A stretch of 64,000 nucleotides of DNA. Source: Octopus vulgaris. Lineage: Eukaryota. Made by a program: the position numbers and the translations under genes. The notes below the pieces were generated by a model. That model made no database searches and was not told the origin of the DNA. It saw only the letters and a list, made by a program, of their open reading frames with translations. The stretch is from assembly GCA_951406725.2 (NCBI GenBank), contig OX597820.1, positions 50,902,001-50,966,000 on the forward strand. Direction: 5' to 3'. Shown here in pieces: positions 35,323 to 36,238 of this stretch (the stretch's first letter is position 1; each line of letters starts with the position of its first letter).

Positions 35323-35872
35323 TGCGTGTGTTTCTAATTTTAATGAAAACCCAGTTTTATTCTTGACATTATGCACGTATATAAATACAGAAAACTTATT
35401 TCTCCCGCACACATTACTTTCCATCATACGCAAACGCACAAAGATTACTGTTTATCAGTTACTGGGTACAGGGAATCGAAGAATGAAAAAGGGGCCTATG
35501 ATTATTGGTTAGGCCCCATCTTATATAAAAAAGCTAAATATCTACAAATTTTAAGGGGGATTCACTTCTGCATCTGAACTTGTTTCTTCCTCCTTGCTAA
35601 ATTTCTCTCAATTGCACTGCATAAGCATATATCATTATCAAAGATTTTCCACGTGTACAAACAACGCAACAGAAACGATATCTATCTATCTATCTATCTA
35701 TCAATCTATCTGTCTGTCTATCTATATAATTTCAGTTGTGGTACAGTATTGTCCAATAATCTGATATGATATAATATGACATAATGTGATATATATATAT
35801 ATATACCGGAGTAAACACATAAATGTGAAACAAGGTGGAAAAAAGAGTACTCAAATACCAGTGGTAGAGTAA

Positions 35873-35910
35873 CTGTCTGATGAACGGCAACGAGAAACTC
35901 AGAGTAACAG
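35873..35910 (+). ncRNA. Minimal type-I hammerhead ribozyme motif with intact core
   Basis: CTGT-CTGATGA-A-CG-GCAA-CG-A-GAAA-CTC-A-GAG-TA-ACAG: 4-bp stem I (CTGT/ACAG), CUGAUGA and GAAA core, GUA cleavage triplet, near-palindromic stem III. Lies within a 35806-35944 element homologous to 22861-23089. Confidence 0.7.
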
Positions 35911-36238
35911 ATTCTGTTGAATTTTCTGCTGCTTTAAATAAAGTATATATATATATATATATATATATATATATATATATATATATATATATATATATAT
36001 ATATATATATATATATATATATATATATATATATATATATATATATATAATATATATATATATATATATATATATATATATATATTATGTGAAATAGAAA
36101 GATGAATAATCTTGTAGTAGATTAATCAAAAGTTTAACCAATACCTTAGTAGCAAAAATCACAGCAGTAAAACAGCACGGTTGGAGGTACAACCATATGG
36201 TGTTGCAACCGTGCGTTGGTGCGGATAATTGAAATTAG

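Follow-up and report, generated by a model that had tools for sequence, protein, structure and literature searches.

A hammerhead-bearing island in Octopus vulgaris is probably a head-to-head stub of a Hydra-clade Penelope-like element

The hammerhead-bearing island at 35806-35943 of the 64,000-nt stretch of Octopus vulgaris DNA analyzed here (the window) is very probably a truncated head-to-head insertion of the pLTR of an autonomous Penelope-like element (PLE) of the Hydra clade, in which both ends of a (TA)n tract primed reverse transcription. Taken alone, the stub in the window is unremarkable debris from a clade already described; the use lies in its family, which is young, comprises approximately 5,000 insertions and retains at least 21 intact frames. 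It touches two questions left open in print, namely the role of the PLE hammerhead, posed in the accessible text of PMC8557442, and the regeneration of the pseudo-LTR, for which 'no obvious mechanism' was stated (PMC2377424).

Family positions are numbered relative to the predicted cut, +1 being the first base 3' of it. A left (TA)n target tract (35790-35805) is followed by an arm on the minus strand (35806-35872) that corresponds to the 3' tail of the element from +108 to +42, with no differences over 66 nt to the tail of locus L062 and one difference to that of locus L061. The direct arm on the plus strand (35871-35943) represents the 3' end of the pLTR from -36 to +37. It differs from L061 at 2 of 72 nt, ends at AAATAAAG and is followed by the right (TA)n target tract (35944-36085). 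A 2-nt microhomology, AA, is common to both arms at the joint (35871-35872). The first-pass annotation had described an island in pure TA repeats. TA tracts do lie on both sides, but the left one consists of 8 units only. Its observation that the 5' part is the inverted tail of an element at 23022-23089 was borne out by the pairing of 35809-35872 with 23085-23022 in inverted orientation (92% over 64 nt). The latter region belongs to an older insertion of the same family (22858-23089, plus strand), composed of an inverted pLTR arm (22858-22938) and a collinear pLTR with tail (22942-23085), with a decayed core (U4C) and a hairpin z score of -21; these two parts are 87.5% and 79% identical to the young element. 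Since 35806-35872 is inverted relative to the hammerhead, the island consists of two joined arms and not of one collinear element. The inverted arm probably originated as a cDNA whose priming took place at the end of the tail. One arm of the window copy kept the tail only, the other kept the hammerhead.

The direct arm harbors a type I hammerhead motif (35873-35910, plus strand), which satisfies the consensus CUGANGA, GAAA and NUH with three stems. The 5' strand of inner stem I, CTGT (35873-35876), precedes the core CTGATGA (35877-35883), the stem II segment A-CG-GCAA-CG-A (35884-35893), the GAAA box (35894-35897), the palindromic stem III CTC-A-GAG (35898-35904) and a GUA site with a predicted cut after A35906, followed by the stem I strand ACAG (35907-35910). 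The intact core claimed earlier for 35806-35944 thus reads as quoted, and the type I search proposed with it found this one descriptor match on both strands of the window, compared to a mean of 0.003 matches expected by chance (300 dinucleotide-preserving resamples of the window). An Rfam covariance search of the hammerhead stretch at the gathering threshold, also proposed, returned no match, and folding of the stretch revealed no excess stability over shuffled sequences (z 0.31 and -0.01). Inner stem I comprises 4 bp, while stem II contains two Watson-Crick pairs only, with a GCAA loop and an A-A opposition at its base. Stem III of the family hammerhead closes only as a dimer (self-duplex -7.4 kcal/mol), and the minimum-energy fold differs from the hammerhead fold. 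In the window copy, the 5' strand of outer stem I was lost at the arm joint, and stems I and II score +1.5 kcal/mol as opposed to -4.2 kcal/mol in the full pLTR. The window copy itself is predicted to be inert.

Same-strand hammerheads spaced 3.35 kb apart led to full-length copies. The parent is a 3.35-kb unit composed of a pLTR with hammerhead, a 71-nt tail, an ORF of 711 amino acids, a 3' UTR of approximately 1 kb and a pLTR; the order pLTR-tail-ORF-pLTR is visible at loci L061 and L062. These and other loci exhibit a hammerhead in the pLTR, a partial tandem, an inverted truncated copy and the tail at one end; the partial tandem, the inverted copy with 5' truncation and the one-sided tail correspond to the PLE layout described in PMC8557442 and PMC3846280. 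The single ORF is intact (727 codons from stop to stop, 711 amino acids from the Met), and open frames of 727 codons were present in 21 of the 150 matches listed. It carries the reverse transcriptase signature YRDDGL at residue 360, and the structure that best matches its predicted fold (pLDDT 88) is telomerase TERT (E 1.5e-9). Comparison of the 711 residues with Pfam returned no family, and comparison with PDB by sequence and by profile returned nothing. A homolog, P0004, passes the Pfam GIY-YIG model (PF01541), and a C-terminal endonuclease core VVY..YTG without cysteines (CCHH absent) was read from the translation of the ORF. In P0002, the motifs RWK (53), DKT (129), CNCKNESSC (CxCx5C; 578), CRLC (CxxC; 683) and CRH (CxH; 711) were located; in copy P0001, F replaces the second C of the linker. 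Of 7,996 scored candidates, 1,074 proved to be homologs of the ORF, and identity was 43-58% for the best 120. Judged by these sequence features, the ORF is the reverse transcriptase/endonuclease of an autonomous Penelope-like element.

According to the accessible text of PMC8557442, the Hydra clade is defined by RWK, DKT and CxCx5C, by the absence of CCHH, by CxxC and CxH, which flank conserved E and N residues, by insertion into (TA)n and by canonical hammerheads. The parent likewise displays a single ORF with a reverse transcriptase followed by a GIY-YIG-type endonuclease, all clade motifs, a (TA)n target and a type I hammerhead near the 3' end. Its assignment to the clade is based on these motifs and on by-eye comparison of published sequences. 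The hammerhead of Hydra-2_Amil from Acropora millepora matches the present one in stem I (ctgt/acag), in the core and in the arms of stem III, whereas the unit length of 3.35 kb exceeds that of the published Hydra members shown, mostly below 3 kb, and stem II has two pairs rather than at least three as in the accessible Hydra table. The supplements of the same paper (Craig et al. 2021) already include a cephalopod member, Hydra-1_Obim of Octopus bimaculoides, which targets (TA)n and carries a hammerhead. Its hammerhead is different and 37 of 58 residues are alike in one reverse transcriptase stretch, counted by eye, which suggests that the window family is a sister family. Furthermore, Hydra-1_Obim is listed there with 'no pLTR', whereas pLTRs and intact young copies are present here. 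The suggestion in the first-pass annotation that the element may be uncatalogued in cephalopods therefore fails at the level of the clade; at the level of the family, two of its motifs gave no matches in the accessible part of that supplement. For O. vulgaris, 31 recently active Penelope-like families have been reported (PMC13282606); the words Hydra and ribozyme do not occur in the accessible main text of that paper, and its library may contain the window family.

In the genome searched (2.8 Gb, 227 contigs), copies consist of an inverted arm followed by a direct arm, flanked by (TA)n on either side, and both outer ends are fixed. One lies at +108, with 4,913 exact tail-end/TATA matches genome-wide (control 0), and the other at +37, with 4,327 exact pLTR-end/TATATA matches; TATATA directly follows the pLTR end in 45 of 54 scored cases, the rest being near-variants. 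Hammerhead-bearing arms numbered 7,099 genome-wide as opposed to 8 in the control. The joints between the arms exhibit microhomology and differ from copy to copy. The proposed check of copy number and arrangement confirmed a large family in (TA)n, arranged head to head; head-to-tail tandem arrays of a non-coding unit were not found among these inverted arms. The tail/ORF junction gave 70 exact matches genome-wide (ORF-start copies), no two of them spaced 3.35 kb on one strand, which argues mildly against full tandem sources. The family is likely a young and abundant new family within a known clade; scored matches sought for sister families had near-equal scores and looked like one family. By its hammerhead, the family divides into three subfamilies. 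An A-U pair closes stem II in the most diverged, which carries U4C; the middle subfamily also carries U4C but has A-G at this place, and the youngest has the canonical U4 and A-A. The core of the youngest lineage looks more canonical and its stem II weaker, with the direction of change taken from an unrooted comparison. Two loci 60 kb apart in inverted orientation, L170 (G000:C1:67403335-67410435) and L171 (67470371-67477471), carry the same insertion with the same flanks and represent either a segmental duplication or an assembly duplicate.

For the mapping of inner arm ends, the 4,913 tail ends were sampled by taking the first 100, which all lie on contig C1, and dropping L171 as a duplicate of L170 (n = 99). 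Taken as alignment ends, which are uncertain by a few bases, 20 tail-primed arms ended at +108 to +6, 4 at +5 to -5, 35 at -6 to -40 (older copies give false ends near -36 to -38, from mismatch to the reference), 22 at -41 to -49, 3 at -50 to -149 and 15 beyond. Hence, 22 of the 40 tail-primed arms that reach -41 stop within 9 nt. Second arms were found for 60 insertions, and 26 of 31 stop in the same interval. At the second pass, followed in all 70 ORF-start copies, only 1 of 55 stopped there (p 1e-9). The pile-up persisted in the youngest subfamily alone (12/25 and 16/16). Searches of the openly accessible literature listed no paper that describes this stop near -45. Arm lengths were coupled, with 11 long/long, 1 long/short, 2 short/long and 54 short/short combinations (p 6e-10). 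No second arm was found for 25 of 81 short-arm and 6 of 18 long-arm copies (31/99 in all). Both arms of L061 surpass unit length, one by roughly 120 nt and the other by roughly 610 nt, and in several copies (e.g. L084, L103, L113, L121 and the window copy) the second arm carries sequence absent from the first.

The predicted cut site was rejected as the main arm end. Joints at this site occurred in 8 of 30 loci, but these loci had been chosen by length similarity to the query. In the unbiased sample, cut-site ends were rare (4/79, 2/56 and 1/58), and genome-wide only 20 joints at the cut site (4-nt microhomology) were found versus 213 perfect palindromes centered on CTAG (-44), in counts by exact patterns, which favor young copies. 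Cut-site joints may form a minor class of ends. A splice acceptor at -41 was likewise dismissed, because the arms start at -43 to -47 and have no upstream exon in common. A slight excess of ends was seen near the second priming site, at +26 to +45 in the first pass (10/92, sample L075-L174) and at +31 to +39 in the second pass (7/65, L175-L244). It possibly reflects a block by bound protein. The second-pass ends had been considered a sign of a closed circle, a reading abandoned because first-pass arms show a like rate.

We propose that the element endonuclease cleaves a (TA)n tract on both strands and that each cut DNA end would prime reverse transcription on element RNA at one internal site, +37 or +108. 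These positions presumably correspond to the two internal priming sites demonstrated in vitro for Poseidon of Anolis carolinensis (Frangieh et al. 2024; PMC11167929). According to the accessible text of that paper, two internal starts of reverse transcription likewise bound the tail, both target strands are cut and extended, and uncleaved RNA is the main substrate. Poseidon belongs to another clade and was studied in vitro, whereas the present model is deduced from genomic copies; its tail measures 30-40 nt as opposed to 71 nt here, and its hammerhead lies over the start codon rather than in the UTR. Most cDNAs of the octopus family would run off the 5' end of the uncleaved transcript near -47, and their ends would then be trimmed and joined by microhomology. 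Position -47 is likely this 5' end, as suggested by the arm ends and by the sequence CCATTCT, whose A lies at -47 and which we take to be initiator-like. Speculatively, long copies might arise from a circular template or a template jump; a circle, a jump and read-through of tandem sources fit the arm-end data alike. The stop near -45, its absence in the second pass and the missing cut-site ends provide exact positions for RNA-end mapping and priming tests.

A tentative and rather doubtful extension is that the copies have recorded the regeneration of the PLE pLTR. Synthesis would start near the RNA 5' end and produce strong-stop-like stubs reaching to about -47, while long and more-than-unit copies would stem from an endless second template, provided by a hammerhead-made circle or by a jump between terminal redundancies. 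This reading would explain the 22 of 40 first-pass stops as opposed to 1 of 55 in the second pass, the coupled arm lengths and the more-than-unit arms of L061. Both a hammerhead-made circle (PMC4209133) and self-priming (PMC3846280) have been proposed for PLEs in the accessible parts of these papers.

Self-priming forms the basis of a different explanation for the inverted arms, which we consider unlikely. A single cDNA might fold back, prime itself at CTAG (-44) and copy back, with later deletions removing parts of the center; fold-back plus central deletion could yield the same final shape. The proposal in PMC3846280, the 213 palindromes on CTAG and the agreement of both arms at subfamily-diagnostic sites (U4 in 22/22, three other sites in 21/22 each) are in line with it, as are the 16 of 32 insertions with a stop at -41 to -49 in which both arms stop there. 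However, only one arm stops there in the other 16, and self-complementarity as such does not create hotspots, as CTAG served as end site in 31 of 72 cases, but AATT in 3/142, TTAA in 5/147 and GTAC in 0/156. Moreover, the arms of long copies are unequal (e.g. -277/-913 and -697/-246), and the second arm ends at the fixed +37, inside first-arm sequence. That the island instead represents a 139-bp non-autonomous, retrozyme-like family, mobile as a unit and in need of its own hammerhead, as the first-pass annotation had assumed, is extremely improbable. The canonical core and sharp ends would fit, and retrozymes are described as non-autonomous PLE derivatives in the accessible text of a preprint (bioRxiv 10.64898/2026.07.22.740005). 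Non-LTR retrozymes, as presented there and in the accessible part of PMC7229834, likewise contain a type I hammerhead related to PLE pLTRs. Yet they are head-to-tail tandem non-coding units, whereas the window copy derives from a coding element and consists of one head-to-head stub, with an inverted 5' half, without a tandem array and with joints that vary among copies. The exact tail/hammerhead joint of the window copy occurs only twice genome-wide. The second match (L004) has an older-subfamily core, so that the joint arose twice and the island did not spread as a unit, and full-length parents with intact frames exist. The related claim of a PLE pLTR hammerhead with palindromic stem III and a microsatellite target was supported by the parent pLTR and the (TA)n ends.

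Within the favored model of a doubly primed, head-to-head pLTR insertion, the hammerhead might still be a relic without catalytic role, insertion requiring only the repeat-end sequence. We regard this as somewhat unlikely. In the insertion sample (n = 82), C3, G5, A6, G8, A9, G12, A13 and A14 were kept in 79-82 cores, but U4 was replaced by C in 38 of 82, in older subfamilies, and base 11.1 varied (A 42, G 18, T 17, C 5). Of the core conservation and stem covariation expected in the first-pass annotation, the former thus holds for most bases, but covariation did not exceed shuffles (406/500), with a two-sided change in 1 of 17 pairs in an alignment of 62 of 76 distinct copies (the other 14 left out); the family, at 91% column identity, is too young for this comparison to weigh either way. 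The U4C change is said to lower hammerhead activity considerably in vitro, and yet it allowed viroid infectivity (PMC3088659, accessible part). A relic would also agree with the deviating minimum-energy fold, with arm ends that do not pile up at the cut site and with the Anolis element, whose ribozyme mutants inserted unaffected in vitro (PMC11167929, accessible text). It is at odds with the canonical cores beside all 57 ORF-start copies scored, by a counting pattern that favors the youngest subfamily, and with subfamily changes that fall mostly at tolerant sites (N7, loop 2, stem II base and the 1-nt loop of stem III). Moreover, across the Hydra families tabulated in PMC8557442 a hammerhead is retained while the stems vary. 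Poor cleavage, in dimeric form, has been reported for PLE hammerheads (PMC4209133), as has cleavage aided by protein (PMC11167929). The octopus hammerhead probably plays a part only when transcribed from full-length copies; there, slow cleavage in a dimer or assisted by protein would be expected.

Other features were noted in the window. A second two-armed palindromic insertion in (TA)n lies about 140 nt downstream of the island (36083-36396, centered on 36317-36318). In each of its arms, GAAACACGTGTA represents the 3' half of a minimal hammerhead that lacks a loop on stem III; no 5' core accompanies it. The insertion is likely a stub of another Penelope-like family. Decayed matches at 20613-21035 (plus strand) and 27054-27275 (minus strand) correspond to the part of the Hydra ORF with the endonuclease (32%, E 9e-12) and, less clearly, to its N-terminus (E 0.007); they are remnants of other, older families. 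Approximately 15 kb downstream of the hammerhead island lies a 510-codon open frame (51256-52788, plus strand) at whose end a sulfotransferase domain begins (PF00685, E 5e-5); the frame resembles the initial coding exon of a heparan sulfate 3-O-sulfotransferase gene.
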